A stretch of DNA of 64,000 nt from Patescibacteria group bacterium (GCA_038078835.1 JBBTQI010000003.1:2196-66195); one strand, 5' to 3'. Positions 3,764 through 60,668 are shown, numbered from the stretch's first letter. Program-made: numbers and translations. The notes: generated by a model from the sequence alone, not told the origin.

Positions 3764-5110
3764 TTAATTTTTGCCGGTCAATGGGGAACTGCTAATAGTG
3801 CCGCCGCCGAGGACAACCTCCCTGTCATAAAACACCGCCGCCTGGCCGGGAGTAATAGCCCGGATCGGGAGATCAAACCGAATTGTTAAATCAAAGTTTG
3901 GCGAGATGCTCGTATCGAGACTTGACGAGATATTGTTCGAAGCCTCAAGCTGAGAACCATAAACCATTGCCGGCTCTGCCGGACTTCGGTATCTTATCTT
4001 TACGCCGACCTTAATCGGAAGTTTAGGAACTTCGCCGATCCAGTGAACATTACTAACTTTGGCTTCATCTGAATACAAATCATCCTTATCGCCAACGTAA
4101 ATTTCGTTCTTCTTAACATCTTTACCAATAATATAATACGGCCCGCCGCCATCTTTGATATCAAAACCATGCCGCTGGCCAATAGTATAATACCAAGCCC
4201 CGTCATGCTCCCCTAACGTACGACCGTCGATGCGCTTTACCAAGCCTTTCTTCGGTTTAATGTAGTCTTTTAGAAATGACTTCATTTTGAGAGGCCCGAT
4301 AAAGCAGACTCCCTGGCTATCTTTCTTTTCAGCCGTTGGTAAATCAAATTTCTTAGCCAGTTCCCGAACCTCCGGCTTGGTATAATCGCCAATTGGAAAA
4401 AGAGTGCGTTCTAAGTGGCGTTGTTTAAGGGTGTAGAGAAAATATGATTGGTCCTTATTCTTATCAACCGCCTGGCAAAGTTCATAAATGAACGACGAAC
4501 CACCTAACGACGAACAACGAATATCATTATCCTCACCCCTGCCCTCTCCCGTCACACCAGGAGAGGGAGTTCCTTCTCCCTCTGGGAGAAGGTTAGGATG
4601 AGGGTTGTGAATCTGTTGTCCATTTGTCTGCTGTCCATTTATGACATTTATGCGAGCATAATGTCCCGTGGCCACATAATCAGCCCCTTCGGCCATGGCT
4701 TTATCAAAAAACAAGCCGAACTTGATCTCCTTATTGCACATAATATCCGGGTTGGGGGTAATTCCAGCCTTGTAAGCCTCCAGCATGTATGTTGCGACCT
4801 TTTCGCCGTACTCTTTGGTAAAGTCCCAGGTCAAGAGCGGAACGCCCAGCTTGGCCGCAACTCTCAAAGCGTCCCGACGCTCCTCTTTCCAAATGCAACC
4901 GGGGACCGCCGGGTTGGGGACTGTCGCCCATGGCGACTGTCCCCTTGACTTCGGACTTTTATCCCCCGTAGCCTCGGCGGAGGGGGACCAAAACTTCATA
5001 AACACGCCCACGACAAAATAGCCCTGTTCTTTCAGCAAGACCGCCGCAACAGAGCTGTCCACCCCGCCGCTCATCGCCACATAAACCTTTTTCTGCTTCT
5101 TCGTATCCAT
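3764..5110 (-). CDS. mnmA: tRNA-specific 2-thiouridylase MnmA, carrying in-frame repeat insertions
   Basis: PP-loop YVAMSGGVDSSVAAVLL. Start moved to the internal Met MDTKK (rc ATG at 5108-5110). About 449 aa versus a typical ~360 aa, because of in-frame palindromic repeat insertions at 4531-4608 and 4917-4945. Confidence 0.85.
   Translation of the reverse strand: MDTKKQKKVYVAMSGGVDSSVAAVLLKEQGYFVVGVFMKFWSPSAEATGDKSPKSRGQSPWATVPNPAVPGCIWKEERRDALRVAAKLGVPLLTWDFTKEYGEKVATYMLEAYKAGITPNPDIMCNKEIKFGLFFDKAMAEGADYVATGHYARINVINGQQTNGQQIHNPHPNLLPEGEGTPSPGVTGEGRGEDNDIRCSSLGGSSFIYELCQAVDKNKDQSYFLYTLKQRHLERTLFPIGDYTKPEVRELAKKFDLPTAEKKDSQGVCFIGPLKMKSFLKDYIKPKKGLVKRIDGRTLGEHDGAWYYTIGQRHGFDIKDGGGPYYIIGKDVKKNEIYVGDKDDLYSDEAKVSNVHWIGEVPKLPIKVGVKIRYRSPAEPAMVYGSQLEASNNISSSLDTSISPNFDLTIRFDLPIRAITPGQAAVFYDREVVLGGGTISSSPLTGKN
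4531..4608. repeat. REP-like palindromic element, family 1 (CCCTCACCCC..CCCTCTCCC / GGGAGAGGG), composite copy inside mnmA
   Basis: cctcacccctgccctctccc...ggagaggg...ccttctccctctgggagaagg. It is in frame in mnmA (encodes HPNPLPEGEGTPSPGVTGEGRG). Confidence 0.6.
4917..4945. repeat. Palindromic element, family 3 (GGGGACTGTCCCC pair), inside mnmA
   Basis: ggggactgtcgcccatggcgactgtcccc; the same element occurs in iscS and nifU. Confidence 0.6.
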
Positions 5111-5278
5111 ATCCGATGAATTATACCGGAAAACCTGCCATGAGTCCATGTAAGAAATAAAAAGGGCTACCCGTATGGTGGCGGACAGCCCTTTTGCGCG
5201 TCGACCGCCTTGCGGCGGTGAATCCAAGGATCAAATGGCAAGGAGCCAAAAGTTCAAAGGATTCAAGAAATCGAGGCT

Positions 5279-6208
5279 CTACTGCGGGAGGAAGCCCGAG
5301 GCAGAGCCGTAGCGGGCACCGTAGCCGCCGACCCCGTACGCGCCGAACCTGACCCTGCCGTCGCAGAAGAGGAAGAAGAACGGCGCGTAGCCGAAGCGGC
5401 CATCGGCTCCCAGAGCAAACTCGTCACCGGGGAGATCCTCGTGGAGCTGCTCCCTGCGAACGAACCGCTCGGGATGCGTCAACGCGATGGCGCCGCCAGC
5501 CAGGCTGCCGAGGCCGTACTCGTTGACCACGAAGGTCTCGCGGGCCCGGCACGTGGACTTGCCGCGGTGGCGCAGGCCGAGCTGGGCGGCGATGACCAGG
5601 ATATCGCCCCCCGTCTGTACCTCAATGATGCGCTCCATGGCTTGCGCCGTGCGAGCGTGCATCCGCAGGTAGCCGGGCGTGATCTGGCCGTCGCGGTAGT
5701 TGTAAAACGGACGCGAGGCCTTGATCTGCGCCAAGGTCAAGAGAATGGCCTGGCAATACTGCTCTGCCGGATCCTTGACCTTCGGGAAGTGCGCCCTGGC
5801 CAGGGCGCCGATCGACGGGATGGCAAACCACCCCTCGGCGCCTTCCGGAAGCTCGGGCAGACGTGCCGCGTAGTCGAGGGCTATCGCCGTGTCGAGGCAG
5901 GGGAAGATCTCGGCGATCATCCTGATCTGCTCGACGATCGGTTTCGGACCCTTGTACTCCGGCGGGTAGACGTAGTTCGACCTGACAACCTCACTGGCGT
6001 ACTTGTTACCCGAGCGATTTTCGGCGATGAAGGCGGTGATCAGGTCGACCAACCCAGGCGTGTTGTTGATACGCTGGGCTTCCTCTTCGGTAAGCCGCGC
6101 CTTGTTGTACGCGGCTTCGACGACCGAAACGAACTTGTGACCCTTCGGGTCTCGGGACGTGACAGACGGAGCCAATGTTGCCATCGGAGCCATCTCCTTT
6201 CGTTTCAT
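5279..6208 (-). CDS. Hypothetical protein on a ~65% GC island (probable horizontal acquisition)
   Basis: A 309-aa ORF whose GC content is visibly higher than the flanking ~50% GC DNA. It has no palindromic-repeat insertions and no recognisable motif. The true start may be an internal Met. Confidence 0.5.
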   Translation of the reverse strand: MKRKEMAPMATLAPSVTSRDPKGHKFVSVVEAAYNKARLTEEEAQRINNTPGLVDLITAFIAENRSGNKYASEVVRSNYVYPPEYKGPKPIVEQIRMIAEIFPCLDTAIALDYAARLPELPEGAEGWFAIPSIGALARAHFPKVKDPAEQYCQAILLTLAQIKASRPFYNYRDGQITPGYLRMHARTAQAMERIIEVQTGGDILVIAAQLGLRHRGKSTCRARETFVVNEYGLGSLAGGAIALTHPERFVRREQLHEDLPGDEFALGADGRFGYAPFFFLFCDGRVRFGAYGVGGYGARYGSASGFLPQ

Positions 6209-6336
6209 GCGGGGGTTCGTAGCTGTCCCATGAGTGGAACAAGCGTACTACCAATCAACCATGACTGGCAAAACGCTTGTTCCAAAAAACCGCAATAACG
6301 TGGCTACTATACACCATCATTAGACTTCTGTCAAGG

Positions 6337-6389
6337 TTGACAACCGTTAAAGCATAGTGCTAATCTAATAACAGACTAATTTAGTCTGG
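6337..6389 (+). promoter_or_regulatory. Putative sigma70 promoter (TTGACA-N18-TAATCT) plus a palindromic operator upstream of the rrf2-iscS-nifU operon
   Basis: ttgaca at 6337-6342 and taatct at 6361-6366, followed by the perfect palindrome cagactaatttagtctg at 6373-6389. This fits an Rrf2/IscR-type autoregulatory site. Confidence 0.4.
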
Positions 6390-6443
6390 ATTTGTGTGAT
6401 ATTTGTTATTAGATATTTGGATAATTCGTTATTCATTCCTGAT

Positions 6444-6833
6444 ATGCGCATCTCGACCAAAACCTACTATGGCCTGCGAGCGATGATCAACCTCGTTCGG
6501 AAAGAGGAGGTTTCTCCGATCGCCGATATCGCCTTTGAGGAAGATATCCCTTTTGCTTTTCTCGAAAAGATCTTTCAGCAACTAAAGCGCGCCGGATTAG
6601 TCAGGTCAAAGAAGGGATCACTAGGCGGCTATGAGTTAGCTCGATCTCCTAAGGAAATTACAGCCGGACAAGTCTTTGAAGCGTTGGGGGAAGAGGTCAT
6701 TTCCTCATTCTGTCCCGGCGATTCGAGCTGCTCCAGGCTTAATTCTTGCGGAACCAAGGACTTCTTGTCTAAACTAGAATCTTCGATCGGCCAAACTCTT
6801 GATTCAATGACACTAGAAAGACTGGCTAACTAA
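6444..6833 (+). CDS. Rrf2-family transcriptional regulator (IscR-like)
   Basis: N-terminal MRISTKTYYGLRAMINL... wHTH, conserved GGYELAR, and three C-terminal Cys (CPGDSSCSRLNSC). Start taken at the ATG at 6444. Confidence 0.8.
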   Translation: MRISTKTYYGLRAMINLVRKEEVSPIADIAFEEDIPFAFLEKIFQQLKRAGLVRSKKGSLGGYELARSPKEITAGQVFEALGEEVISSFCPGDSSCSRLNSCGTKDFLSKLESSIGQTLDSMTLERLAN

Positions 6834-6834
6834 A

Positions 6835-8088
6835 ATGAAACACATTTATCTTGATCATTCAGCTACAACGCCGCTCGATCCGAAGGTTCTTTCGGCGATG
6901 ATGCCGTACTTCGGCGACAACTTCGGCAATCCGGGATCCTTGCACTCGTTCGGTGTTGAGACCAAGAAAGCAATCAACGACGCGCGCAAAAACATTGCCG
7001 CTTTTTTGGGCTGCGATGAATCCGAGATTATTTTCACCTCTGGTGGATCAGAATCAGACAATCTGGCCATTCGAGGACTCGTATCACGTAGCAAAGGGGA
7101 CTGTCCCCTAAAGGGGACTGTCCCCGAGAACGCCAAGAAGCCCCACATTATCACGTCGGCGTTTGAGCACAAGGCTGTTTTGGATACAGTTAAATCGCTT
7201 GAAAGGGAGGGAATAATCAAGGCTACCTATATTAAACCGGGCGCGGACGGAGTTATTAAAGTTGATGATATTAAAAATGCCATTCGCGATAACACTGTTT
7301 TAGTCTCGATTATGTACGTCAATAACGAGATCGGCACCATCCAGCCAATCCGTGAAATTGGTAAGGTCATTTCCGGGCTTAATTCTAAAATCGAAAATCG
7401 AAAATCAAAAATCTATTTCCACACCGATGCCGTTCAGGCCACGGAGTTCTGTCCGATAAATGTCCGTGATCTCGGCGTCGATCTGCTCTCCCTCTCCGCC
7501 CACAAAATCCACGGTCCCAAGGGCGTTGGCTTACTCTATGTCAAATCAGGCACACTTCTCAAGCCAGAGATTACCGGCGGCGGACAGGAGAGAGGGTTCC
7601 GCGCCGGAACGGAAAACGTTCCCGGTATTGTTGGGTTTGCTAAAGCAATATCATTAATTAGCAGCTCAAATCCCAAAGTCATACCCCCCCTTTCTAAGGG
7701 GGGGCGAAGAGAGGTTGAGAAGCTTCGCGACAGACTTATCGACGGTATCTTGGAGCGGATTCCCGGCTCGATTTTGAATGGTGATCGTGACCATCTGGCG
7801 CCGCATATTGCCAATATCAGTTTTATTAATGCCGAAGGCGAGGCTATCCTTTTAAACCTCGATTTTCTGGGTATTGCTGTTTCGACCGGTTCGGCCTGCA
7901 CTTCGCGCACGCTTGAGCCCAGCCACGTTTTAACCGCGATGGGTATCCCGCCCGAGCAAGCCCATGGTTCTATTCGGTTCTCCTTGAGCCGGAACACAAC
8001 CGAGGCAGAGATTGATCGAGTACTGGATGTCCTGCCGGGTATCATTGAAAAATTGAGGACAATGAGCCCATTTGACACAAATGGATAA
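6835..8088 (+). CDS. iscS: Cysteine desulfurase (IscS/NifS family), carrying in-frame repeat insertions
   Basis: PLP-lysine motif SLSAHKIHGPKG and a C-terminal active-site Cys region (GSACTS). In-frame insertions at 7097-7125 (GGGGACTGTCCCC pair), a microsatellite at 7383-7409 (aaaatcgaaaatcgaaaatc) and the palindrome cccccctttctaaggggggg near 7683. Confidence 0.9.
   Translation: MKHIYLDHSATTPLDPKVLSAMMPYFGDNFGNPGSLHSFGVETKKAINDARKNIAAFLGCDESEIIFTSGGSESDNLAIRGLVSRSKGDCPLKGTVPENAKKPHIITSAFEHKAVLDTVKSLEREGIIKATYIKPGADGVIKVDDIKNAIRDNTVLVSIMYVNNEIGTIQPIREIGKVISGLNSKIENRKSKIYFHTDAVQATEFCPINVRDLGVDLLSLSAHKIHGPKGVGLLYVKSGTLLKPEITGGGQERGFRAGTENVPGIVGFAKAISLISSSNPKVIPPLSKGGRREVEKLRDRLIDGILERIPGSILNGDRDHLAPHIANISFINAEGEAILLNLDFLGIAVSTGSACTSRTLEPSHVLTAMGIPPEQAHGSIRFSLSRNTTEAEIDRVLDVLPGIIEKLRTMSPFDTNG
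7097..7125. repeat. Palindromic element, family 3 (GGGGACTGTCCCC TAAA GGGGACTGTCCCC), inside iscS
   Basis: Direct and inverted pair; encodes GDCPLKGTVP in frame. Confidence 0.6.
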
Positions 8089-8257
8089 CTAATTCATCCA
8101 AATGACTAATGACGAATAATATAACCCCCTACGCCCATCCTTCTCACACCCCACCCGACCTTCCCGCAGACAGGGGAGAAAACAAAAGAAGGAGAAAATC
8201 TGAATTAGTCATTCGTCATTTAGACCAATTCGTTATCCATTTGTGGTCAGGAGTTTG

Positions 8258-8710
8258 ATGGAACAGTATTCAAAAACAGTCTTAGAGCACTTTTATAACC
8301 CGCGCAATGTCGGGGAAATTGCCGATGCCGACGGCGTTGGCGAGGTGGGCAATCTTCGCTGCGGCGATGTTATGTACGTCTATATCAAAGTAGAAAGGCG
8401 AAAGGCGAAAGGCGAAAATGGTGCAAGGGGACTGTCCCCAAAGGGGACTGTCCCTGGATTTGCCGAAGAAGAATACATTAAGGACATTAAATTTAAAACC
8501 CTGGGCTGTGCGGCGGCCATTGCTTCGACCAGCATTATGACCGAGATGGTTCGAGGTATGAGCTTAGACGAAGCAATGAGGATCACGCGCGACGACATCA
8601 ATGATGCCCTGGGAATTCTCCCCAAACAAAAATACCACTGCTCTATCCTCTCGGCCGACGGTATCCATAAGGCAATCGAAAATTACAGGGCAAAAAAGCA
8701 ATTTAGCTAG
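8258..8710 (+). CDS. nifU: Fe-S cluster assembly scaffold (IscU/NifU N-terminal domain)
   Basis: FYNPRNVGEI...GDVMYVYIKV...LGCAAAIASTSIMTEMV conserved Cys ligands. Start at the ATG at 8258 preceded by AGGAG. Carries a family-3 repeat and a (aaggcg)n microsatellite in frame. Confidence 0.85.
   Translation: MEQYSKTVLEHFYNPRNVGEIADADGVGEVGNLRCGDVMYVYIKVERRKAKGENGARGLSPKGTVPGFAEEEYIKDIKFKTLGCAAAIASTSIMTEMVRGMSLDEAMRITRDDINDALGILPKQKYHCSILSADGIHKAIENYRAKKQFS
8427..8453. repeat. Palindromic element, family 3, inside nifU
   Basis: ggggactgtccccaaaggggactgtccc; encodes RGLSPKGTVPG. Confidence 0.6.
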
Positions 8711-11549: not shown

Positions 11550-13013
11550 TTAGCCCAACTCCCAGTTGGCGTCTACTTTAATCTTGCCCCAAGAAGAAAC
11601 ATTGTTTCGCAGAACGTGATAGTAGGCCGCCAGACCAATCATCGCCGCATTATCGCCGGTTAAAGCTATTGGCGGTACCAGAAAATCTACTTTCGACTTT
11701 TCACTTTCAACTTTCAACTTGCTTCGAAGGTGTTTGTTTGCAGCAACGCCGCCGGCCAAAACAACGGTTTTGGGGGTAAATTGTTCAACCGCTCTCATTG
11801 TTTTAGTTACCAGCACATCAACAACTGCATCCTCAAAGGCAGTGGCAATCTCCGCTTTATCGATATCATCAAGACCCTCACCCCTACCCTCTCCCAAAGG
11901 GCGAGGGAGTTTTAAGGAAATCCGACGCTTAACTTCCAGAAGAACAGCTGTCTTTAAACCGGAGAAAGAAAAATTAAAAGTGCCATTGTTAATAATCGGC
12001 CGAGGAAGAACTAATTTGCTTAAGGCTGGAGGCTTAAGGCCGACCTTCGACAAACTCAGGTCGCCCTGAGTGGAAATTGAATGGGCGGAGGCCACATCCT
12101 TCCCGCCTTCAGCCTTCGGCCTTGGGCCTTGGGCTGATTCGCCTTTAGGATCATTTCTAAATTGCTCCGCCAATTTAGAAATGATCGGTCCCCCGGGATA
12201 ACCAAGACTAAGCAACTTGGCCACCTTGTCAAAAGCCTCTCCCGCCGCGTCATCCAGGGTCTGGCCGAGAGTCTCATACTGATCGTGACCCTTCATCAGA
12301 ACAAGCGAAGTATGCCCGCCAGAAACCACTAAAGCCAAAATTGGAAATTTTGGCTCGTCCAAGGCCAAAGGCCCAAGGTCTAAGGTCTTTTCGTCTCGGC
12401 CTTCGACCTTCGACCTTCGACCTTCGACATTTACTCCGCTTAAAGCGGAGTAAATATGTCCTTCGATATGGTTGACGGGAATAATCGGCTTATCCAGCAC
12501 GTAAGCGATCGATTTGGCGGCGTTAAATCCAATCAAAAGAGACCCGATCAACCCCGGTCCCGCCGTTACCGCGATGTGGGTAATCTCATTTTTTAGATAA
12601 TCCTGACTTTCCTGAAAATTACTACCCTCACCCCAACCCTCTCCCTGAAAGGGAGAGGGAGTATTAAAGGTTCCATCGCCCCGTTTCACGGGGAGAGGGT
12701 TAGGGTGAGGGGTTATAATAGATCCGTTTCCTTTATTTTGCATTTTGCATTTTGCATTTTGATTTTTAGCCTGTAAGAGTGCTTGTACGATTACAGGCGT
12801 TATCGCTTCCATATGCGCCCGGCTGGCCACCTCCGGCACTACCCCGCCCGTCTTGGCATGGAGATCGATTTGAGAGCTCACCACATTCGACAAAATGACA
12901 GGCCGAAAGCCTGTCATCCCGGACTTGATCCGGGATCCATCTTTTCCTACCCCAATAACCGCCGCAGCGGTCTCATCACAAGACGACTCGATGGCAAGAA
13001 TTAGAGGGGACAT
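11550..13013 (-). CDS. tsaD: tRNA N6-adenosine threonylcarbamoyltransferase TsaD (Kae1/YgjD), strongly expanded by in-frame repeat insertions
   Basis: LILAIESSCDETAAAVI, HIEGHIYSA, and GGVAANKHLR. Start at the internal Met MSPLILAIESS (rc ATG at 13011-13013). About 487 aa versus a typical ~340 aa. It contains family-1 repeats (11875-11910, 12625-12712), family-2 repeats (12085-12135, 12352-12430) and a (cattttg)n microsatellite at 12738-12762. Confidence 0.85.
   Translation of the reverse strand: MSPLILAIESSCDETAAAVIGVGKDGSRIKSGMTGFRPVILSNVVSSQIDLHAKTGGVVPEVASRAHMEAITPVIVQALLQAKNQNAKCKMQNKGNGSIITPHPNPLPVKRGDGTFNTPSPFQGEGWGEGSNFQESQDYLKNEITHIAVTAGPGLIGSLLIGFNAAKSIAYVLDKPIIPVNHIEGHIYSALSGVNVEGRRSKVEGRDEKTLDLGPLALDEPKFPILALVVSGGHTSLVLMKGHDQYETLGQTLDDAAGEAFDKVAKLLSLGYPGGPIISKLAEQFRNDPKGESAQGPRPKAEGGKDVASAHSISTQGDLSLSKVGLKPPALSKLVLPRPIINNGTFNFSFSGLKTAVLLEVKRRISLKLPRPLGEGRGEGLDDIDKAEIATAFEDAVVDVLVTKTMRAVEQFTPKTVVLAGGVAANKHLRSKLKVESEKSKVDFLVPPIALTGDNAAMIGLAAYYHVLRNNVSSWGKIKVDANWELG
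12625..12712. repeat. REP-like palindromic element, family 1, composite nested palindrome inside tsaD
   Basis: ccctcaccccaaccctctccc-tgaaa-gggagaggg ... ggggagagggttagggtgaggg. The outer arms at 12625-12645 and 12692-12712 are reverse complements. Confidence 0.65.
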
Positions 13014-13032
13014 TAGAGGGGACGGTTCTCTT

Positions 13033-13683
13033 TTAGGCACAGTTTTTCGCTTTCTTTGATTTTCTGGCCACCTTTTCCTGTTCTCGGTATCTTTGATAAT
13101 TACTGCCCCAGATATTTTTACCATAAGTTTGCTCAATAATTTGGTCTACCACCAGTTTTTGATAGCTAATTTGTCTATCTTGTGCATCCTGTCCGATTGC
13201 CTCATAAAGAAAATCGGGGGTGATTAATAAATCTGTTTTACCTCGAACGTAATGGAGATAGCTTGAGTATTTGTAATCTTCCGGCCTTTCTACTAATCTC
13301 GCCCTGACCGGATTAAGTTCAATATACTTTCCGCACTGGATAAAGTAGGCGTCCTTACCGACCGCCTGACTTTTATAGCGATCTTGCCAAAAGTGGCCAA
13401 TCCAATCATAGGACTGCCGATAGTGTTGGAAATAGGCCAAATTTAACTTTTTCATAAAAGTCGAAAAGTCGAGAGCTTTCTTGGTTTGAATTAAAAAGTG
13501 AGTGTGGGTAGGCATCAAGCAATAATGATAAAGGTCAAAAGGATGTTCTGATTTATACCTGCCAATAAGTTCTAAAAAATACAAATAATCATCATCTGAC
13601 CTGAAAACCTTATTCCGGTTGTTGCCCCGGGTCATTATATGATAAAAACTCTGAGATAAAAGAAATCGTCGTGTTCTTGGCAT
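13033..13683 (-). CDS. REP-associated tyrosine transposase (RAYT, IS200/IS605 TnpA-like HUH enzyme)
   Basis: HUH motif CLMPTHTHFLIQ, plus WQDRYKS and YIELNPVRARLV with the catalytic Tyr region, 216 aa. A 12-bp direct repeat (cattagagggga x2) at 13001-13024 lies just downstream. Confidence 0.7.
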   Translation of the reverse strand: MPRTRRFLLSQSFYHIMTRGNNRNKVFRSDDDYLYFLELIGRYKSEHPFDLYHYCLMPTHTHFLIQTKKALDFSTFMKKLNLAYFQHYRQSYDWIGHFWQDRYKSQAVGKDAYFIQCGKYIELNPVRARLVERPEDYKYSSYLHYVRGKTDLLITPDFLYEAIGQDAQDRQISYQKLVVDQIIEQTYGKNIWGSNYQRYREQEKVARKSKKAKNCA

Positions 13684-13789
13684 AACGTAAGTTTACTAGA
13701 ATTCAGTAAAAAGCGAAATATCGAGATAAAAAGAGAACCGTCCCCTTAAGCTCTTAAGCTTATTAACAAAAATCCCTATAAAAATCAAA

Positions 13790-13820
13790 TGGAGCGGCCG
13801 ATCTTCGATCGGCCGCTCCA
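13790..13820 (-). terminator. Perfect GC-rich hairpin downstream of the GC-rich gene at 13857-14639
   Basis: ggagcggccgatc-ttc-gatcggccgctcc, a 13-bp stem, followed on the minus strand by an A/T-rich tract. Confidence 0.4.
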
Positions 13821-14774: not shown

Positions 14775-15719
14775 TTGAAGTTAATGTCCACCTCTCTTTT
14801 CCAAACCCCCGAGTGGGGGGATTTTAAGTGCCAAACCGGCTGGAGCAAGCAGCATCGCCTTGACGGTATTTTGGTGCTGGAGAAAAAATTACCCCTTGGA
14901 CGGACGATGCTATATTCACCGATGATCAATGAGGCTCAAGGCCGGAGGCTCAAGGCCGGAGGCTTTTTGGAACAGATCAAAAACATCGCTCAAAAGCGCA
15001 ATGCCATATTTTACCGGGTGGAATTCGACACCCCGCTCCCAACCTTCGACCTTAAGCCTTCGACCTTCGGCGCCCGTCGGGCTTTCGAGGAGATGCAGCC
15101 GGAGCATACGCTGATTCTCGATATCACCCAGAGCGAGGAAGAGATTCTGGCTCAGATGAAACCAAAGGGGCGGTATAACATTAAAGTGGCCGAACGAAGC
15201 GGAATCGAGATAACGGAGTCAACTGATCCCAAGGGGCCGGAACTCGACAGCTTTTACACACTCTACGAGTCTATGGCCAAGCGGCAAAGAATTTCCTATC
15301 GAGATAAAAAATACTTCGAGGCTCTACTTGAAATCCTGGGCAAAAAGGATTATGCTCGACTGTACGATGCCTCTGTTAATATTGATGGCAAAACTACTAC
15401 CCTGGCATCAGCCATTGTCGGGAACTTTGATCGGCGGGTGACCTATCTCTTCGGCGGCTCAAGCAATGAACACCGTAATTTGATGGCGCCCTATCTCCTG
15501 CATTGGCAGATAATCAAAGATGCTAGAGCGCAGGGCTGCACTGAATACGACTTGTTCGGTATTGCCCCCAATGATGACCCCAAACATCCCTGGGCCGGCG
15601 TAACGCGGTTCAAAAAACAGTTCGGCGGCCGCGAGGTCCACCTGGCCGGAAACTGGGATCTGGTCTTTAGACCGGTTGAATATCAATCATTCAAGATAGT
15701 CGAGAAAATCCGAAGATAG
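14775..15719 (+). CDS. FemAB-family peptidoglycan interpeptide-bridge aminoacyltransferase
   Basis: FemAB-like architecture: LILDITQSEEEILAQMKPKGRYNIKVAER, then ...YLFGGSSNEHRNLMAPYLLHWQIIKDARAQGCTEYDLFGI. Carries two family-2 repeat insertions (14936-14966, 15041-15072). Confidence 0.8.
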   Translation: MKLMSTSLFQTPEWGDFKCQTGWSKQHRLDGILVLEKKLPLGRTMLYSPMINEAQGRRLKAGGFLEQIKNIAQKRNAIFYRVEFDTPLPTFDLKPSTFGARRAFEEMQPEHTLILDITQSEEEILAQMKPKGRYNIKVAERSGIEITESTDPKGPELDSFYTLYESMAKRQRISYRDKKYFEALLEILGKKDYARLYDASVNIDGKTTTLASAIVGNFDRRVTYLFGGSSNEHRNLMAPYLLHWQIIKDARAQGCTEYDLFGIAPNDDPKHPWAGVTRFKKQFGGREVHLAGNWDLVFRPVEYQSFKIVEKIRR

Positions 15720-17350: not shown

Positions 17351-17363
17351 CAACGAACATCCC

Positions 17364-18491
17364 TCACTTTAATCCTCTCCCTTTGAAGGGGAGAGGGGAG
17401 GGGGAGGGTTTGGCTTGTGAGCGTTTGCCGTGAAAAGCTTGGTGAACTTCGCGCAGATGCTGATCGGTAACATGGGTATAGACTTGAGTGGTGGTGATGG
17501 AAGAGTGGCCCAAAAGCGACTGGACGCTCCGAACATCGGCGCCGTTAATTAAGAGATCGGTGGCAAAGGAGTGGCGCAAGGTGTGCGGCGATACCTTTTT
17601 AGTGAGACCGGCTTTCCTGGCCGCTTTCTCGACAATACGCTGGACACTTCGAACCGCGAGACGCCCGCCCCGGGGGGAAGAGAAAAGGGGCTCATTATCA
17701 CTTAAGGCCGGAGACCTAAGGCCGGAGACCAAATTGCTATTACCTTCAGCCTTCAGCCTTAGACCTTGGGCTGATTTGCCTTCAGCCTTAGACCTTCGGC
17801 CTTGAGCTGATTCGCCTTGGGCCTTGGGCATGGGGCCTTCGGCATAATTCTTCAACCAATATTTTGCGCTCTCTGAAAGAAAAACGACCCGAAGCTTCTT
17901 GCCCTTACCCAACACGGCAATCTCACCTCGTTCGAGATTTATCTGGTCCCGGTCAAGGGCGACCAACTCCGAGACTCGCACCCCCGTTGAAAAAAGAACC
18001 TCCAGAATCGTCCGATCGCGCAAACCGGAAGTTTTAGCAACATCGACAGACTCTAAAACGCTTCTAAGCTCCTCCGTTTCCAGAAAACTGATCTCGCGAT
18101 CCCCCGTTTTAGCGATAACAACCTTCTCCGGCGGTAAAGTCATAATCCCCCGCCAAGAGAGATAGCGCAAAAAAGCCCTAAGGGCTAGGGCATGATAATT
18201 TTGTGTCGTCTTCTTAAGCTCTTGCCCCTTCTTGTCGCCCAATCGATTGATGTAAAGCCGGTAGTGCCGCACCGTCTCTTGGGTAATCATTTCTGGCATA
18301 AGGCCGGAGGCCACATCCTTTTCGCCTTCGACCTTAGGCCTTTGGCCTTCGGCAACATAATCCTTCAGCCACGTTAAAAAACGATTAAGGTAGCGGTCAT
18401 ATCCGGCAATCGTTAAAGTTGACTGGCCCTTGTCCAGCTCGCAATACTCCAAAAACTCGCGTTTTAATTGAAATAAATCATTCATTATCAT
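17364..18491 (-). CDS. xerD: Tyrosine recombinase XerC/XerD family, carrying in-frame repeat insertions
   Basis: HTLRHSFATDLLINGADVRSVQSLLGHSSITTTQVYTHV (R..HxxR..Y catalytic box). Two family-2 repeat insertions (17697-17835, 18298-18360). The C-terminal tail and stop codon lie inside a family-1 palindrome (17361-17410). Confidence 0.85.
   Translation of the reverse strand: MIMNDLFQLKREFLEYCELDKGQSTLTIAGYDRYLNRFLTWLKDYVAEGQRPKVEGEKDVASGLMPEMITQETVRHYRLYINRLGDKKGQELKKTTQNYHALALRAFLRYLSWRGIMTLPPEKVVIAKTGDREISFLETEELRSVLESVDVAKTSGLRDRTILEVLFSTGVRVSELVALDRDQINLERGEIAVLGKGKKLRVVFLSESAKYWLKNYAEGPMPKAQGESAQGRRSKAEGKSAQGLRLKAEGNSNLVSGLRSPALSDNEPLFSSPRGGRLAVRSVQRIVEKAARKAGLTKKVSPHTLRHSFATDLLINGADVRSVQSLLGHSSITTTQVYTHVTDQHLREVHQAFHGKRSQAKPSPSPLPFKGRGLK
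17697..17835. repeat. GC-rich palindromic element, family 2 (AGGCCGAAGGC / GCCTTCGGCCT theme), inside xerD
   Basis: aaggccggagacctaaggccggagacc...ccttcagccttcagccttagaccttgg...ccttcggccttgagctgattcgccttgggccttgggc. The translated segment KAQGESAQGRRSKAEGKSAQGLRLKAEGNSNLVSGLRSPALSDN recurs in uppP and tsaD. Confidence 0.6.
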
Positions 18492-18608
18492 AAATGGATG
18501 ACTAATTGGTCTAAATAACAAATGACGAATATTCATATCCCCTCTATCTCCCTCCCGCATCGAGTACGGGACAGGCTCTACCTTAGGGGGAGAACCATTG
18601 GTTGTTCG

Positions 18609-19241
18609 TTATTTGGAAAATTCGTTATCCATTTCTGGTTGTGCTGTGGCATACTCCCAATGCCTCTCATATTTATGAACAAAGCGATAGGCCAGAACAC
18701 CGGACAAAACTCCCAGGATGGCGCCGGCGGCAGTATCAGAGGGGTAGTGCAGGCCCGTTCCAATCCGACCCAGCGCCACGCCGAAAGCAAGGATAAGCAA
18801 AGCTATGCCCAAACGACGGTGGCCATAGAGATAAACACTGATAGCAATGGCAAAAACAATATAGGTGTGACTGGAGGGAAATGAGCTCATCCTCTCGACC
18901 GAGAAGAGACTAAGAGAGGGATTAACGATGTCTTCGTGGGTAACAAAGGGGCGGGGGCGGCGCCAAAAAACGAAAATGATCAGGTCGGTCATTGCACCAA
19001 GGCCCATCGCGATGAAGGAGCAGATAAAAGCATTGATTCTTTTGCGCCAGATCAGATAGGTGAAGGAAAGCAGAAAAATCGCCATACCGAACTTGGCAAA
19101 GAAAAAAAAGAGTCGGTAAAACCAGGGATTGCCCTCGCCTAAATTATAGAAGAAATAATAAATCGTAAAATCATAACTACGCAAAGAATCAAAAAAGCTT
19201 TCCATAACCCTATGATAACACTCAGAGAAACCGGTTAGCAA
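18609..19241 (-). CDS. PAP2-family phosphatase (acid phosphatase / undecaprenyl-PP phosphatase-like membrane protein)
   Basis: PAP2 motifs ...RRPRP, SFPSSHT, RIGTGLHYPSDTAAG. The true start may be the internal Met MESFFDSL (~19205). Confidence 0.7.
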   Translation of the reverse strand: MLTGFSECYHRVMESFFDSLRSYDFTIYYFFYNLGEGNPWFYRLFFFFAKFGMAIFLLSFTYLIWRKRINAFICSFIAMGLGAMTDLIIFVFWRRPRPFVTHEDIVNPSLSLFSVERMSSFPSSHTYIVFAIAISVYLYGHRRLGIALLILAFGVALGRIGTGLHYPSDTAAGAILGVLSGVLAYRFVHKYERHWEYATAQPEMDNEFSK

Positions 19242-19261: not shown

Positions 19262-20170
19262 ATGATAACTATGCAAGAATTCTTTCAGTCTCTGGTAATC
19301 GGCGCCATCCAGGGCATCACCGAATTTCTGCCGATCTCCTCGTCGGGGCACCTGGTCTTGGTCCCTTATCTTTTTGGTTGGGACTATCAGGGTCTCTCAT
19401 TTGATGTCGCCCTTCATTTTGGCACCGCCCTTGCTGTTATTGCCTACTTCCGGCGGGACTGGATAAAGATCATCGCTAAAGGCCTAAGGCTGAAGGCTGA
19501 AGGCAATAGCAATTTGGCCTCCGGCCTTAGGCCTCCGGCCTTAGGCTTTTCCGCTTCCAGCCCTAGGCCTCCGGCCTTAGGCAAAAATTTGCTGTGGCAA
19601 ATTTTAATCGCTTCCATTCCGGCGGCGATTGCCGGCATCTTGATCAACGACTATGTTGAATCAACTCTCCACTCTCCTCTCTTGCTCGCCGCTAACCTGA
19701 TTATCTTTGGCTGGCTTCTCTGGTATGCCGACAAACGAGCTGCCTTCGGCCTTTGGCCTTCGGCCTTCGCCCATTCGATTTCCACTCAGGGCGATCTGAG
19801 TCTATCGAAGATCGGCCTTCGGCACGCCTTGTTTATTGGTCTGGCTCAATCTCTTGCCCTGGTCCCCGGCGTCTCCCGCTCCGGCATCACCATCACCGCC
19901 GCTCGCAGCCTCGGCCTGAATCGGGAAGCGGCAACCCGCTTCTCCTTTCTCCTCGGTACTCCGGCGATTGTCGGCGCCTTTCTCTATAAATTCAAGGATA
20001 TCGATATTGCCCTAATTAACCTTCCCTTTATTGTTGCCACACTGGCGGCAATGGTCTTTGGTTTTCTTGCGATCAAGTATTTGCTACAATATTTAAGAAA
20101 GAGCGATTTCTCCGTTTTTTTGTGGTATCGAGTCGCACTAGCCATAATCGTGCTCTTCGGAGGGAAATGA
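19262..20170 (+). CDS. uppP: Undecaprenyl-diphosphatase UppP/BacA, carrying in-frame repeat insertions
   Basis: N-terminus LVIGAIQGITEFLPISSSGHL, and a C-terminal GVSRSGITITAA motif. Family-2 repeat insertions at 19478-19582 and 19742-19772 encode LRLKAEGNSNLASGLRPPALG and FAHSISTQGDLSLSKIGL. Both peptides also occur in xerD and tsaD. Confidence 0.85.
   Translation: MITMQEFFQSLVIGAIQGITEFLPISSSGHLVLVPYLFGWDYQGLSFDVALHFGTALAVIAYFRRDWIKIIAKGLRLKAEGNSNLASGLRPPALGFSASSPRPPALGKNLLWQILIASIPAAIAGILINDYVESTLHSPLLLAANLIIFGWLLWYADKRAAFGLWPSAFAHSISTQGDLSLSKIGLRHALFIGLAQSLALVPGVSRSGITITAARSLGLNREAATRFSFLLGTPAIVGAFLYKFKDIDIALINLPFIVATLAAMVFGFLAIKYLLQYLRKSDFSVFLWYRVALAIIVLFGGK
19478..19582. repeat. GC-rich palindromic element, family 2, inside uppP
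   Basis: aggcctaaggctgaaggctgaaggc...ggcctccggccttaggcctccggccttaggc. Confidence 0.6.
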
Positions 20171-30130: not shown

Positions 30131-31189
30131 ATGTCCCAATTTTCAACTCAACAATCAATCGACATTGCCGGGATTAAGGAGGGTGTCGTCATCCTCAAGA
30201 ATGGCGGCTACCGCCTGATCTTTTCGGTGGCGGCAATTAACTTTGCCCTAAAGAGCGAGCAGGAACAGAACTCGATTATTTTCCAGTACCAAAGCTTTTT
30301 AAACTCCCTTCACTTCCCCATTCAGATCGTGATGAGATCCAAGCGTTTAGACCTCGACCCGTATTTGCAAAAAGTCTCCAAGCTGGCCGGAGATCAGCAA
30401 AACGAGTTATTGCGAATTCAAACTGAGGATTACGTCGACTTTGTCGGCAAACTCATCAATATCGCCAACATTATGAAAAAGACCTTCTACGCCGTCATCC
30501 CCTACCAGCCCCTCTCTCTCCAAAACACGGGCGCTCTGGGCAAACTGTTCCGGCGAGAAAAAACGGTGACAGAGCTTAAGATCTCTGAAACGGAGTTCAA
30601 TCATAATATCCAGGAGCTTAAACAGCGCGCCGGCGTTGTCGCCAGCGGCCTGGGCTCGATGGGCCTGCGCTGTGTTCAGCTCTCAACCGAGGAGGTCATT
30701 GAGCTCTTTTATCAAGTCTACAACCCCGAAGAAGCCGGAACGGAGAGAGTCAGCGATGCCGAGAGCCTGACCTCGCCCGTTGTCATTCACAAAAGCGAAG
30801 CGCCCGAAGAAGCCGGAGGTCAAAGGCCGGAAGGTGAAGGCGATAATACGGCCGAGAGCCTAAGGCCGAAGGCCGAAGGGGGTCAAGCTGAAGGCGAAAG
30901 GCCGGAGGCTGAAAGCCAAAGAGAAGAGGTAATTGACAATTCGGCCTCGGTACTGGCGCAACAAAAAGAACAAGCTATGCTCCACCGCCAGGAGATGATG
31001 AAGGAGGGAGAGCGCAATATAGCCCAAGGCCAAAGGCCGGAGGCTGAAGACGACAACACCCCCAATCCGCCACCGGCAACGCCCGAACCAATAACTCAAA
31101 CGCCGAATCAAACCACTACTCAAACAAATCAGCCCGACAACTCGAACCCCGAGGAACAGGATGAAACCCAACAGCACAAGCCCCAATAA
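30131..31189 (+). CDS. VirB4/TraC-family ATPase, N-terminal fragment (split gene) with a low-complexity repeat-derived tail
   Basis: DIAGIKEGVVILKNGGYRLIFSVAAINFALKSEQEQNSIIFQYQSFLNSLHFPIQIVMRS matches the VirB4 N-terminus of Gram-positive conjugation systems. The C-terminal ~130 aa (EAPEEAGGQRPEGEGDNTAESLRPKAEGGQAEGERPEAE...) are encoded by family-2 repeats at 30812-30918 and 31021-31048. Confidence 0.55.
   Translation: MSQFSTQQSIDIAGIKEGVVILKNGGYRLIFSVAAINFALKSEQEQNSIIFQYQSFLNSLHFPIQIVMRSKRLDLDPYLQKVSKLAGDQQNELLRIQTEDYVDFVGKLINIANIMKKTFYAVIPYQPLSLQNTGALGKLFRREKTVTELKISETEFNHNIQELKQRAGVVASGLGSMGLRCVQLSTEEVIELFYQVYNPEEAGTERVSDAESLTSPVVIHKSEAPEEAGGQRPEGEGDNTAESLRPKAEGGQAEGERPEAESQREEVIDNSASVLAQQKEQAMLHRQEMMKEGERNIAQGQRPEAEDDNTPNPPPATPEPITQTPNQTTTQTNQPDNSNPEEQDETQQHKPQ
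30812..30918. repeat. GC-rich palindromic element, family 2, inside the virB4 N-terminal fragment
   Basis: ggaggtcaaaggccggaaggtgaaggc...gcctaaggccgaaggccgaaggg...gaaaggccggaggctgaaagcc. Confidence 0.55.
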
Positions 31190-33441: not shown

Positions 33442-33497
33442 CATTGCCGAAGGCTGAAGGCCTAAAATAGTCGCCTTCGGCCTCAAGCAAATTATTA

Positions 33498-48493: not shown

Positions 48494-48793
48494 CACAATA
48501 CCTTTCGCTAATATTTTCCTGTGGATAACTCCCTGATTTATCCGCAACCCTGTGGATAACTTATGAAAAACTCGTCGCCTGTAAGGGCGCCGGTTTAAGC
48601 CGGTATATTCTTATCCCCGACACCGGGTATTAATCCACATCTTTTCCCCCACCTTTGTCCAGAACTTATCCCCAACCTCCTCCTTTGTTTTTGATATTTG
48701 ATATCTGATATTTGATATTTATCCACTTATCCACAAGCCTTACTATTACTACTATTAAGTATTTATTATCTTTTCAATAAAACAGGGGATAAG
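48494..48793. other. Chromosomal replication origin (oriC) between dnaA and dnaN, with DnaA boxes and an AT-rich unwinding element
   Basis: TGTGGATAA at 48520-48528 and 48551-48559, TTATCCGCA near 48538, TTATCCAC/TTATCCACA at 48719-48735, plus AT-rich (tgatattt)n repeats at ~48690-48725. A further TTATCCACA lies upstream of dnaA at 50228-50236. Confidence 0.7.
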
Positions 48794-50182
48794 TTAACGA
48801 AGAAAAGTGTAAATTCTCTCTTTAATCATCAATATATCATCTTTGACTCGATCGTTTTTATTTAACTCGGATTCAATCTTGCGATAACCGTGAATGACTG
48901 TCGAGTGATCTTTCCCGCCCATAATACGGCCGATATCGGGAAAGGACAACCCGCCCTCGCTTTTGAGTAAAAACATTGCTATCTGCCGCGGCAAAACCAA
49001 CTCTTTTGTTCGGCGTTTTCCCAGGATATCATCTATCGGAACCTTGAAGTGGCGATGAATCTCCCGCATAATGAGATCGGGAGTGATTGTTTGGCGCCGC
49101 TCTTTAATCATCTCCCCCAGAATTTCATTGACGCAATCGGTATCAATCGGGACATTTTTAAGCTCGCATGTCGCGATAATCTTGGTTAGGACCCCTTCAA
49201 GCTCACGAATGGAGGAGTGGATATTTTCGGCGATAAAACGGATTACCTCGGGTTCGATGTGGACTCCGTGCTTGCGCGCCTTATGACGCAGGATAGCCTC
49301 TCGTGTTTCCAGGTCGGGCTGGCTGATGTCGGTCACCATTCCCCCCTCGAAGCGTGTTTGGAGCCTGATTTCAAGTCCTCTGATGGATTTGGGGTGGGTA
49401 TCGGCGGTTAAAACCACCTGTTTTTTGTTTTGGTGTAGGTGATTAAAGGTGTGAAAGAATTCATCCTGAGTGCTTTCTTTGCGGGAGAGGAACTGAATAT
49501 CGTCGATCAGAAGAAGGTCGACATTGCGGTACCGGTCTTTAAAGTCCTTTGCCCGGCCGTGCCCCGCCTCAACGGCGGTGATAAAATCATTAATGAAGGT
49601 TTCGCTTGAGATATACAAAACCTGTTTGCCGGGACTCTTCTCTAAGAAAGCGTGGCCGATTGCCTGAATAAGATGAGTTTTGCCTAATCCCGAGTTGCCG
49701 TAAATAAAGAGCGGATTGTACTGACTGCCGGGACGGCTGGCGACGGCAAGGGCGGCGGCGTGAGCAAGTTGATTTGAGGGACCGACAATAAAATCATTAA
49801 ATTTATAATCCTCGTTCAAATTGTTGCCGATGAGCGACTTTTGCCGGTTGGCATTGACGCGAGCCGGCTCAGAGTTATCCACAGGGCTGTGGATAACTCT
49901 GGATTTTTGAAGGATATTTTTAAACTCCGGCGGGGGTGAGGCGATCTTGAACTTGATGCCGACGACTGTTTCTGTCACCTGCTTTTGCAGGGCGTTTTGT
50001 ATCTCTTTTAAATACTTACGTTTCAGCCAGTTTTCAAAGAAGATATTCGGCGCCCCGATTGTAAAATAACCCTTTTTAAAATCAGCTAAAAAGGCGCCCC
50101 GAAACCAGGTTTGATAGTTGGCTGTTGAGAGCGAAACCTCTAACTCATTCAGAACATTGCGCCAAATTTGGACTAAATCCAT
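48794..50182 (-). CDS. dnaA: Chromosomal replication initiator DnaA
   Basis: AAA+ Walker A GNSGLGKTHL, LLIDDIQF, and a C-terminal DNA-binding domain (...HSTVIHGYRKIE). Start at MDLVQIW (50182). Confidence 0.95.
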   Translation of the reverse strand: MDLVQIWRNVLNELEVSLSTANYQTWFRGAFLADFKKGYFTIGAPNIFFENWLKRKYLKEIQNALQKQVTETVVGIKFKIASPPPEFKNILQKSRVIHSPVDNSEPARVNANRQKSLIGNNLNEDYKFNDFIVGPSNQLAHAAALAVASRPGSQYNPLFIYGNSGLGKTHLIQAIGHAFLEKSPGKQVLYISSETFINDFITAVEAGHGRAKDFKDRYRNVDLLLIDDIQFLSRKESTQDEFFHTFNHLHQNKKQVVLTADTHPKSIRGLEIRLQTRFEGGMVTDISQPDLETREAILRHKARKHGVHIEPEVIRFIAENIHSSIRELEGVLTKIIATCELKNVPIDTDCVNEILGEMIKERRQTITPDLIMREIHRHFKVPIDDILGKRRTKELVLPRQIAMFLLKSEGGLSFPDIGRIMGGKDHSTVIHGYRKIESELNKNDRVKDDILMIKERIYTFLR

Positions 50183-50401
50183 AGCTGGAAAATCCCTTAA
50201 AAAAATAGACAACTCAAATATAGCAAGTTATCCACAGGGTACGTCAATAGAGCGTTGGGCAAGGCATCCATCGTCGCTAAAGTGACTTCTCCTACAAAAT
50301 TACAAATTTTACAAATACTATGGTGAACAGGTTCGAATCAATTTGTAATATTTGTAGTTTCGAAAGATTTGTAATTTTGTAGGATATTTAGGTGTATTGT
50401 G

Positions 50402-50430
50402 TTGACTTTAGTTTTAAGATAAGCTAAACT
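50402..50430 (+). promoter_or_regulatory. Putative sigma70 promoter TTGACT-N17-TAAACT for rpmH (short or leaderless 5' UTR)
   Basis: ttgact at 50402-50407 and taaact at 50425-50430; the ATG is at 50440 with no obvious SD. Confidence 0.35.
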
Positions 50431-50439
50431 ATCTCTGTT

Positions 50440-50574
50440 ATGAAGAGAACATTTCAACCAAACAGACAGCGCCGGGCCAAGAAACACGGCTTTTTAAAAC
50501 GTATGGCCACTCTTAGCGGTCGTCTTGTTATTAAGCGTCGCCGCAACAAGGGCAGATCAAAATTGACAGCATAA
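50440..50574 (+). CDS. rpmH: 50S ribosomal protein L34
   Basis: [44 protein letters not shown] (44 aa). It is below the ORF-track size cutoff and was translated by hand. Confidence 0.9.
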
Positions 50575-50742
50575 ATGTAAGTGTGAAGGTACTAAGCGTG
50601 AAAGGGGAATGAAAGCGCTGACTTAATATCTCACACTTTCATCTGCTATCTTTGCGGCGAGCTTCGGCTCGCTTTTTGATTGGCGTGTTGGTCGAACTTG
50701 TGTTATGATTAGAAAAGGCCGACTTCGGCCTGTTTTCAAGCA

Positions 50743-55619: not shown

Positions 55620-55629
55620 TGCTTACATA

Positions 55630-55673
55630 ATCCACCTGGAAGGTGAATGCGCCCAAACACCTTCCAGGTGGAT
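55630..55673. terminator. Conserved hairpin CCACCTGGAAGGTG-N12-CACCTTCCAGGTGG, copy 1 (terminator-like)
   Basis: atccacctggaaggtg aatgcgcccaaa caccttccaggtggat, directly after the stop of the 54795-55619 gene. Confidence 0.5.
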
Positions 55674-55738
55674 TACTCGCTCGAACTATAACAAAAACCG
55701 CTTCGATCGCGAGCGGTTTTTGCTGTTATCACTAAGAT

Positions 55739-56513: not shown

Positions 56514-56538
56514 TTATCCTCCATGATAACTCACCGCC

Positions 56539-56586
56539 AACCCACCTGGAAGGTGTTTGGCCACACTCACCTTCCAGGTGGGTTGG
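56539..56586. terminator. Conserved hairpin CCACCTGGAAGGTG-N12-CACCTTCCAGGTGG, copy 2
   Basis: aacccacctggaaggtg tttggccacact caccttccaggtgggtt, between pilin-like genes 2 and 3 (downstream of the stop of gene 3 on the minus strand). Confidence 0.5.
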
Positions 56587-60465: not shown

Positions 60466-60518
60466 TGCCAAAAAAGCGATGCTAATGACGAATTTACATG
60501 CGAATGACCAGAATGCTT

Positions 60519-60562
60519 GCCCACCTGGAAGGTGAATGTGCTCAAACACCTTCCAGGTGGGC
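60519..60562. terminator. Conserved hairpin CCACCTGGAAGGTG-N12-CACCTTCCAGGTGG, copy 3
   Basis: gcccacctggaaggtg aatgtgctcaaa caccttccaggtgggc, downstream of the stop (60669) of the secreted paralogue gene. Confidence 0.5.
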
Positions 60563-60668
60563 AACACAGGTGGGCAACAGAAGACTCCCTGGTTGGCGAT
60601 TAACGGTTCGTTTCGTTTATGATTTGTCCGGATGTGCCTATCGGATCATCTTTTATTTTTCACAGGAT

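Follow-up and report, generated by a model that had tools for sequence, protein, structure and literature searches.

Paired palindromes in mnmA, iscS and nifU of a patescibacterium: probable relatives of RAYT/TIRYT transposase repeats

Homologues of RAYT, the tyrosine transposases that go with repetitive extragenic palindromes (REPs), can be flanked by terminal inverted repeats (TIRs); Di Nocera et al. (2013) named such units TIRtrons and their enzymes TIRYT (PMC3733652). Many TIRtron TIRs have the motif GGGGWSAS in common; self-complementary ones are known, and some make up genomic families organized as dimers or clusters. According to the same paper, Opitutus, Rickettsia (the Rickettsia palindromic elements, RPE), Thauera and others also carry REPs, often dimers, in frame within housekeeping genes. 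According to Quentin et al. (2018), TIRYT form subclass 2.1 of TnpA(Y1), with a C-terminal helix-turn-helix (HTH) domain of the Bac_DnaA_C, HTH_23 or HTH_28 type (PMC6006769). TIRtron/TIRYT repeats and REPs inside genes are already known; the host here is from the Patescibacteria, or Candidate Phyla Radiation (CPR). We analyzed a 64,000-nucleotide stretch of DNA (JBBTQI010000003.1:2196-66195, hereafter the window) from a groundwater population of Patescibacteria whose nearest relatives are Berkelbacteria-like, in which the genes mnmA, iscS and nifU each contain a pair of short palindromic units, termed a doublet below.

We consider it probable that the three doublets represent a small hairpin of selfish DNA, of the kind that accompanies RAYT/TIRYT-type Y1 (HUH) transposases. 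The initial annotation had left open whether their occurrence in sulfur-trafficking and Fe-S genes was coincidence or reflected a shared regulatory RNA structure. Coincidence was essentially the correct choice, and the idea of a regulatory hairpin of the sulfur relay gives way to a concrete mobile-element explanation. [quoted passage not shown] It also identifies one 29-nt hairpin common to many phyla and tolerated in six reading frames, which bears on annotation, on homology modelling of CPR proteins and on how compact genomes accommodate selfish DNA.

Sequence, folding and placement of the doublets

The iscS doublet (7096-7125) joins two perfect units, GGGGACTGTCCCC-TAAA-GGGGACTGTCCCC, and codes for GDCPLKGTVP. 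The nifU/iscU doublet (8427-8455) reads GGGGACTGTCCCC-AAA-GGGGACTGTCCCT, with a 3-nt spacer and T as its final base, and codes for GLSPKGTVP. The mnmA doublet (4916-4944), in a gene on the − strand, is a variant, GGGGACTGTCGCC-CAT-GGCGACTGTCCCC, and departs from the pattern first proposed. When one mismatch was allowed, the 13-mer GGGGACTGTCCCC was matched nine times in the window (both strands counted) at six positions, which make up three pairs. About 0.04 matches were expected and none of 100 shuffles reached nine. The element reported in frame in the three genes is a discrete palindromic one. Chance was ruled out as its source by the shuffle statistics together with the match between the 17-nt unit and the transposase TIRs described below.

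All open reading frames (ORFs) that carry doublets are intact and match the expected Pfam families: tRNA_Me_trans for mnmA (tRNA 2-thiouridylase; 3764-5149, − strand, called as a 461-residue version in public assemblies), Aminotran_5 for the cysteine desulfurase iscS/nifS (6835-8088, + strand) and NifU_N for the scaffold nifU/iscU (8258-8710, + strand, 150-residue version). The doublets there encode RGQSPWATVP, KGDCPLKGTVP and RGLSPKGTVPG, respectively. Over the doublet region, three independent Logan assemblies were 100% identical, and an assembly artefact is therefore excluded; the presence of the element in independent sequencing of the locus was thereby confirmed. The ENA contig Hain_H43_01um_R2_148 differed from the window only by a scaffold gap (a run of N) and two single-nucleotide polymorphisms (SNPs), outside the doublet region. 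Both SNPs fall within other repeats, one (12755) in an (ATTTTGC)n array of tsaD and the other (13809) in the loop of a perfect palindrome at 13790-13820.

Each doublet forms a single hairpin, its 13-bp stem interrupted by a central T-T (or A-A) mismatch and closed by a loop of 3-4 nt. Folding as DNA confirmed the stability of these hairpins on either strand, with ΔG values of −12 to −15 kcal/mol and z-scores of −3.4 to −5.6; the values were −14.7 kcal/mol and −5.6 for mnmA and −14 kcal/mol and −5.6 for iscS. The two substitutions of the mnmA copy (G at position 11 of unit 1 and C at position 3 of unit 2) compensate each other only in pairing between units. Variant doublets at other loci, inspected by reading, included approximately seven in which paired changes preserve pairing between units, versus one in which only pairing within a unit is preserved. 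These compensatory changes and the folding favored one long hairpin per doublet, and a pair of small hairpins was rejected.

The three doublets lie within 3.6 kb of one another and 4.9-8.1 kb from a transposase gene, and the remaining approximately 50 kb of the window contain none. Their clustering gave p of about 0.01 under uniform placement, a rough post-hoc estimate that lends weak support. The genes mnmA, iscS and nifU, together with an Rrf2 gene, are physical neighbors. Doublets would thus be found in three sulfur-related genes because these genes adjoin one another close to the transposase, and not because of a shared function.

The local transposase, its ends and doublets in other genomes

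The gene at 13036-13683 (− strand) encodes a Y1/HUH tyrosine transposase of the RAYT/TIRYT type, with an ORF of 216 residues (200 in public assemblies) and a Pfam Y1_Tnp match. As in the REP/REPIN-RAYT systems (E. coli TnpA(REP), Pseudomonas REPINs), the protein fits the REP-associated tyrosine transposase model of NCBIfam (REP_Tyr_transpos, NF047646), and its best PDB match was E. coli TnpA(REP) (4ER8). The HUH histidines (H-x-H), WQ and Y-x-E-x-NPVRA were invariant in an alignment of homologues. Members of this protein family, with 60-75% identity, abound in Patescibacteria, and a C-terminal extension of about 70 residues is conserved among the CPR homologues. An IS200/IS605 element was considered and rejected: the IS200 model scored 23.8 bits against a cut-off of 55, and whereas each end of the known type bears a subterminal hairpin, both in one orientation, the ends here are inverted repeats that do not fold by themselves.

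The gene is bracketed by perfect 17-18-bp inverted repeats, a feature of TIRtrons rather than of elements with classical REP hairpins. The left TIR (13017-13034, + strand) is A-GGGGACGGTTCTCTTTT, with GGGGACGGTTCTCTTTT itself at 13018-13034, and the right TIR (13729-13746, − strand) is AAAAGAGAACCGTCCCC-T, its exact reverse complement (13729-13745 being the complement of GGGGACGGTTCTCTTTT). When both strands of the 64 kb were searched with the 17-nt unit AAAGGGGACTGTCCCCT at up to three mismatches, the two TIRs were the only matches beyond the doublet units themselves. Of its 17 positions, 14 agree with AAAGGGGACTGTCCCCT in each TIR, the AAA and T context among them; about 0.25 matches were expected by chance. 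The TIR tip, GGGGACGG, matches GGGGWSAS at seven of eight positions and the − strand of the doublet unit, GGGGACAG, at all eight, as the motif is given in PMC3733652.

A tandem duplication, ATTAGAGGGGAC in two copies (13000-13023), comprises the tip of the left TIR and its flank, and overlaps the region of the tsaD start codon. Homologues with 65-72% identity in four other patescibacterial loci (L125, L127, L129 and L130) have the same ends, GGGGACGGTTCT(C) ... GAGAACCGTCCCC, and similar duplications of TIR tip and flank were found near them, at 9915-9950 in L125, at 10677-10715 in L130 and just past the right TIR in L129 and L127. These duplications suggest repeated nicking and rejoining at the transposase ends, or slippage. 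The L127 gene (10001-10801) is a second RAYT-type gene, 70% identical to that of the window, on a 72-kb contig that shares its sample and coverage with the contig of the window; it adjoins a restriction-modification pair of the MvaI/BcnI type and may either be a paralogue from the same genome or come from a different CPR population.

Doublets were sought elsewhere with the pattern GGGGACNGTCCCC-N2-6-GGGGACNGTCCC in one genome per GTDB species, and at least 120 loci were found. Those listed included Oxalobacteraceae, Planctomycetota, Kuenenia, Omnitrophota, Thermoleophilia, Actinomycetes, WOR-3, Aminicenantes, Saccharibacteria and Patescibacteria. A metagenome scan for the form with the AAA loop gave 78 loci. 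At two loci the doublet itself serves as the TIR of a RAYT-like gene. In L043 (Planctomycetota) a gene whose product is 33% identical to the window protein has inverted doublets on both sides, and in L135 (metagenome) such a gene is flanked on both sides by the inverted doublet, GGGGACTGTCCCCAAAGGGGACTGTCCCC. The 29-nt flanks in L135 are exact reverse complements of each other and equal the nifU doublet except for its last base.

Many copies elsewhere appear intergenic and terminator-like, in that their flanks lengthen the stem and a run of T follows. Coding location was judged only from Pfam-confirmed ORFs, as spurious long ORFs are common in high-GC loci and make a test for open frames uninformative there. 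At least 15 unrelated genes contained the doublet in frame, with all six frames in use. Among the genome loci, Pfam-verified hosts were valyl-tRNA synthetase (ValRS), an aminotransferase-CobQ fusion, a UvrD-like helicase-nuclease (two copies), Era, a giant protein with PKD domains and a zinc-finger protein. The metagenome hosts were an NAD-dependent epimerase, the succinyl-CoA ligase alpha subunit (SucD), dihydropteroate synthase (FolP; two copies), a heptosyltransferase (two copies), a MiaB-like radical-SAM enzyme, IspG, urocanase and a glycosyltransferase. The ValRS gene of a member of the Saccharibacteria (L040, 2556-5201) contains, besides the doublet (ARGLSPSGTVPG), other repeat-like in-frame peptides (SRESGNLVAKDPRVKPEDD, and DPRVKPEDD again), and palindromic inserts in frame may be common across CPR lineages.

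Origin of the doublets

The comparison with described systems suggests that the doublets are REP-like TIR repeats with GGGGWSAS, which resemble the TIRYT/RAYT repeat class and probably belong to it. As in TIRtrons, the repeats are self-complementary and occur as dimers; the units of the three dimers visible in the window match the TIR at 14 of 17 positions. As in REP/REPIN-RAYT systems, short imperfect palindromes pair into one longer hairpin near a transposase gene. The flanks of the window's gene are related to the doublet unit (14 of 17 positions) but are not the doublet; the flanks of the RAYT-like genes in L043 and L135 are the doublet itself. Several differences were also noted. Subclass 2.1 enzymes have an HTH domain, whereas no Pfam HTH was found in the C-terminal extension here. 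Patescibacteria are absent as hosts from the passages searched in PMC3733652 and PMC6006769. The three visible copies are all intragenic, and the local TIR differs from the doublet unit at three of 17 positions. Classical REPs carry a GTAG or CGTC tetranucleotide beside an imperfect palindrome of 20-40 bp and number tens to hundreds of dispersed copies per genome, most of them extragenic. Unlike REPs and REPINs, the doublet has no GTAG/CGTC tag, is just 29-30 nt long and consists of direct copies that leave a T-T mismatch. Tagged REP families were rejected as a match because GTAG is lacking and the TGTC/CGTC inside the unit does not lie beside an 8-9-bp stem as it does in CGTC-1 to CGTC-4.

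Intragenic REPs and RPE offer a parallel in habit, being palindromes, often dimers, that lie in frame in housekeeping genes (tRNA synthetases, DNA repair) and are presumed to be tolerated passengers. The inserts described here add about 10 residues, against 20-30 for dimer or grouped inserts in PMC3733652. On inspection, RPE-1 to RPE-8 differed from the doublets in sequence, length and host phylum and shared the in-frame habit alone.

By analogy with TnpA(REP) and IS200/IS605, the hairpin would form in single-stranded DNA at the replication fork, where a transposase could cut and rejoin it. The enzyme that would mobilize the doublets is the local one, encoded between GGGGAC-tipped inverted repeats. 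Copies that survive within genes would be those that keep the frame, are free of stop codons and sit in tolerant surface loops; they would be translated with the host protein, presumably at no cost, and the doublets would be passengers in their host genes. The unit contains no stop codon in any of the six frames and always codes for a Gly-x-x-Pro turn (GDCP, GTVP, GLSP, GDSP or GQSP), and is therefore unusually easy to tolerate. The − strand reads GGGGACAG in all three doublets. As the replication origin lies at approximately 48.7-50.4 kb, the − strand is the lagging-strand template at the doublets, and the position of GGGGACAG on that template agrees weakly with single-strand transposition (n = 3, with the strand bias itself deduced). 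This origin region (48560-50440) was recognized from dnaA (48794-50212, − strand), dnaN, recF and rpmH (50440-50575, + strand), from TTATCCAC DnaA boxes at 48719-48734, an inverted pair of DnaA boxes at 49870-49901 and AT-rich ATTTGTAAT repeats at 50279-50381, and from a minimum of the cumulative GC skew near 50 kb.

Several observations weigh against a transposase origin. The NCBIfam score of the enzyme barely exceeds the cut-off (81.1 versus 80 bits), with homologues at 68-80 bits, and its C-terminal 84 residues gave no Pfam HTH match even at E values up to 10. The flanks of the local gene are a related but different sequence (GGGGACGGTTCTC), not the doublet, and in DNA folding they do not fold alone. 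No doublet units were found within 10 kb of the homologues in L125, L127, L129 and L130, and a specific pairing of enzyme and repeat is therefore weakened. Only three doublets are visible, from 64 kb of genome. Neither an insertion polymorphism nor an empty site was seen for any doublet, the nearest IscS homologue being just 71% identical.

The best-surviving alternative, which we regard as unlikely, is that the palindromes arose de novo. Slippage or template switching would have duplicated a unit of 16-17 nt and hairpin-templated correction would have shaped it, with no transposase involved and the likeness to the TIRs secondary. Both units of a doublet carry the T on one strand and are hence direct copies, and Tandem Repeats Finder recognized the iscS doublet as a perfect 17-nt tandem duplication. 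The tandem duplications of end and flank at the transposase termini, the richness of the window in short tandem arrays and the lack of doublets near the other CPR homologues also fit. However, the identical 29-nt sequence recurs in many phyla, independent slippage would not yield inverted doublets on both sides of RAYT-like genes in L043 and L135, and a match at 14 of 17 positions to both TIRs is improbable by chance.

Selection at the protein level is improbable. In this explanation a Gly-x-x-Pro loop, or the Cys of GDCP, would benefit the enzymes; the ORFs are intact, IscS keeps the lysine of its SAHK motif and the cysteine of GSAC, and the iscS frame does code for a Cys. The three genes nevertheless use three different frames (GDCP/GTVP in iscS, GLSP/GTVP in nifU and GQSP/ATVP in mnmA), and the doublet is therefore defined at the level of DNA, not as a peptide; at other loci all six frames occur. 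The modelled IscS insert is coil of low confidence and is not conserved in homologues, as detailed next.

In the host proteins, each insert falls in a gap relative to solved structures and in a variable loop. Against solved cysteine desulfurases, a 12-residue gap falls exactly at the doublet peptide of IscS, SKGDCPLKGTVP. In NifU, residues 54-75 (22 residues, comprising a heptamer array and the doublet) are inserted relative to solved NifU/IscU structures, and in MnmA an insertion between residues 43 and 70, counted from the Met at 5104, includes the doublet. Alignment of 23 IscS sequences (377-468 residues for the homologues) revealed three hypervariable loops, which hold the doublet (loop 1), an (AAAATCG)n array (loop 2) and a C7/G7 palindrome (loop 3), and the insert was absent from all 22 of the closest homologues aligned. 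An AlphaFold model of IscS (mean predicted local distance difference test score, pLDDT, 80) has coil at all three sites, with pLDDT below 50 at residues 89-96 (doublet) and 278-287 (palindrome); at the array the coil lies between H172-185 and E194-198. Variable, low-confidence loops thus hold every repeat examined in the IscS, NifU and MnmA proteins, as well as five of the six heptamer arrays of TsaD.

A shared regulatory RNA structure, in which mRNA hairpins would coordinate sulfur-trafficking and Fe-S genes, can be given very little weight. The hairpins are stable, and all three copies in the window are in mnmA, iscS and nifU; since these genes adjoin, their co-occurrence is not independent. 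The central T stays on the + strand in all three doublets while mnmA is transcribed from the other strand, and the mRNAs therefore lack one shared oriented motif, the orientation following the DNA strand and not transcription. In an Rfam scan of the window the sole match was a tRNA, with none for the doublets, and the 22 IscS homologues lack the insert. The suggested enrichment in one functional class was contradicted by the spread of the doublet over other phyla, with in-frame copies in unrelated genes and terminator-like intergenic ones.

That the doublets are operators of the Rrf2/IscR-type regulator encoded directly upstream of iscS (6396-6833) has next to nothing to recommend it beyond this proximity and the fact that Rrf2 proteins bind palindromes, E. 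coli IscR type-1 sites containing GACT...AGTC: the doublets lie at least 260 nt inside coding sequence, outside the promoter, a different 23-nt inverted repeat (6235-6284) precedes the Rrf2 gene, and the doublet is cosmopolitan and tied to Y1 transposases. The 23-nt repeat (83% complementary), between a divergent ORF (5279-6208) and the Rrf2 gene, is a better operator candidate.

Heptamer arrays and other repeats of the window

Arrays with a period of 7 or 14 nt numbered 23 in the window, against about 0.7 expected from triplet-block shuffles. They are located in tsaD (six), iscS, nifU, FemAB, a XerC-like integrase, BacA/UppP, the ORF at 30131-31189 and intergenic DNA. The coding microsatellites first noticed in iscS, nifU and tsaD were all recovered, with the correction that the nifU repeat is a heptamer and not the hexamer (aaggcg)n. 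They are (AAAATCG)3.9 in variable loop 2 of iscS (7387-7413); (GAAAGGC)3.6 in nifU (8393-8417), directly 5′ of the doublet in the same insertion; and (ATTTTGC)4.7 in tsaD (12735-12766), within an insertion of residues 84-141 relative to solved TsaD and with the SNP between assemblies at 12755. The perfect palindrome reported in iscS near 7683 proved to be C7-TTTCTAA-G7 at 7684-7704, in variable loop 3, with a 9-bp stem (ΔG −10.7 kcal/mol, z −3.2).

The nifU array is one member of the (AAGGCNN)n family, which is dispersed and was matched 41 times where 0.23 matches were expected, at 8388-8413, 12022-12417, 14931-15067, 17704-18349, 19472-19774, 30855-31051 and 33443-33461. Its hosts are nifU, tsaD, FemAB, the XerC-like integrase, BacA/UppP and other ORFs. 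Parts of the family make up longer modules that unrelated genes have in common: 65 nt at 94% identity between the integrase (17703-17767, − strand) and bacA (19479-19543, + strand), and 58 nt at 90% identity between tsaD (12036-12093, − strand) and bacA (19762-19819, + strand). Both are read in the same sense and frame in each gene, and the shared peptides include GLRLKAEGNSNL.SGLR.PAL and AHSISTQGDLSLSK.GL. These in-frame modules appear to have been mobile, or subject to gene conversion, in the recent past.

With arrays in so many unrelated genes, the restriction to genes of the sulfur relay and tRNA thiolation was not borne out; other CPR loci contain heptamer arrays as well. The heptamer arrays are a genome-wide repeat phenomenon, separate from the doublets and not a property of sulfur genes. 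Nor is tsaD a thiolation gene, because its product matches the Pfam family tRNA N6-adenosine threonylcarbamoyltransferase, which makes N6-threonylcarbamoyladenosine (t6A). The arrays may be related to the STRR heptamers of cyanobacteria. Bacteria have been reported to contain more heptameric simple repeats than expected (PMC4692102), and short arrays of 7-nt period are likewise strongly over-represented here; as differences from the described cases, they lie mostly in coding sequence, with about four copies each, and many belong to the single (AAGGCNN)n family, within elements of 58-65 nt common to unrelated genes.

TsaD has 487 residues versus 343 in the E. coli structure, with five insertions that contain five of its six heptamer arrays. 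Together, the doublets and heptamer modules suggest that repeat-derived loops make up a large share of the additional residues in this lineage's housekeeping proteins. We tentatively raise a broader possibility, which we think may well be wrong, that the GGGGAC-N-GTCCCC doublet hairpin is the substrate, conserved across phyla, of one RAYT/TIRYT clade and that doublets and at least two other miniature families, (AAGGCNN)n repeats and CCCTCACCC-type hairpins, systematically colonize surface loops of essential CPR proteins. If so, miniature repeats would be a main source of lineage-specific length expansions in CPR, such as those of TsaD and the IscS homologues, and mobile hairpins would be an ongoing generator of new protein loops in streamlined CPR genomes with little intergenic space.

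Other repeats were observed in the window. Within tsaD (11553-13013), two palindromic repeats also lie inside insertions, and short palindromes at 12149-12186 and 12429-12455 are nearby. A CCCTCACCCCWACCCTCTCCC family occurs at 4530-4562 (the mnmA copy), 11875-11907, 12625-12711 and 17361-17393; in tsaD, two inverted CCCTCACCCCWACCCTCTCCC copies form an 87-nt hairpin (DNA ΔG −29.6 kcal/mol, z −7.0) that codes for HPNPLP...GEGWGEG. A 42-nt inverted repeat (86% complementary; 8076-8117 and 8204-8245) brackets the iscS-nifU spacer. Related copies are located at 18482-18543, 6401-6441 and 18597-18637, and AT-rich relatives (AATTCGTTATCCATTTGTGGT) stand at the 5′ ends of three genes, namely the Rrf2 gene, nifU and the ORF at 18609-19241; the repeat is possibly a MITE or associated with promoters. 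Finally, CCACCTGGAAGGTG-12 nt-CACCTTCCAGGTGG, whose arms of 18-19 nt are perfect inverted repeats, is present in three copies (55628-55675, 56537-56586 and 60517-60564); these hairpins form another family and are possibly terminators.

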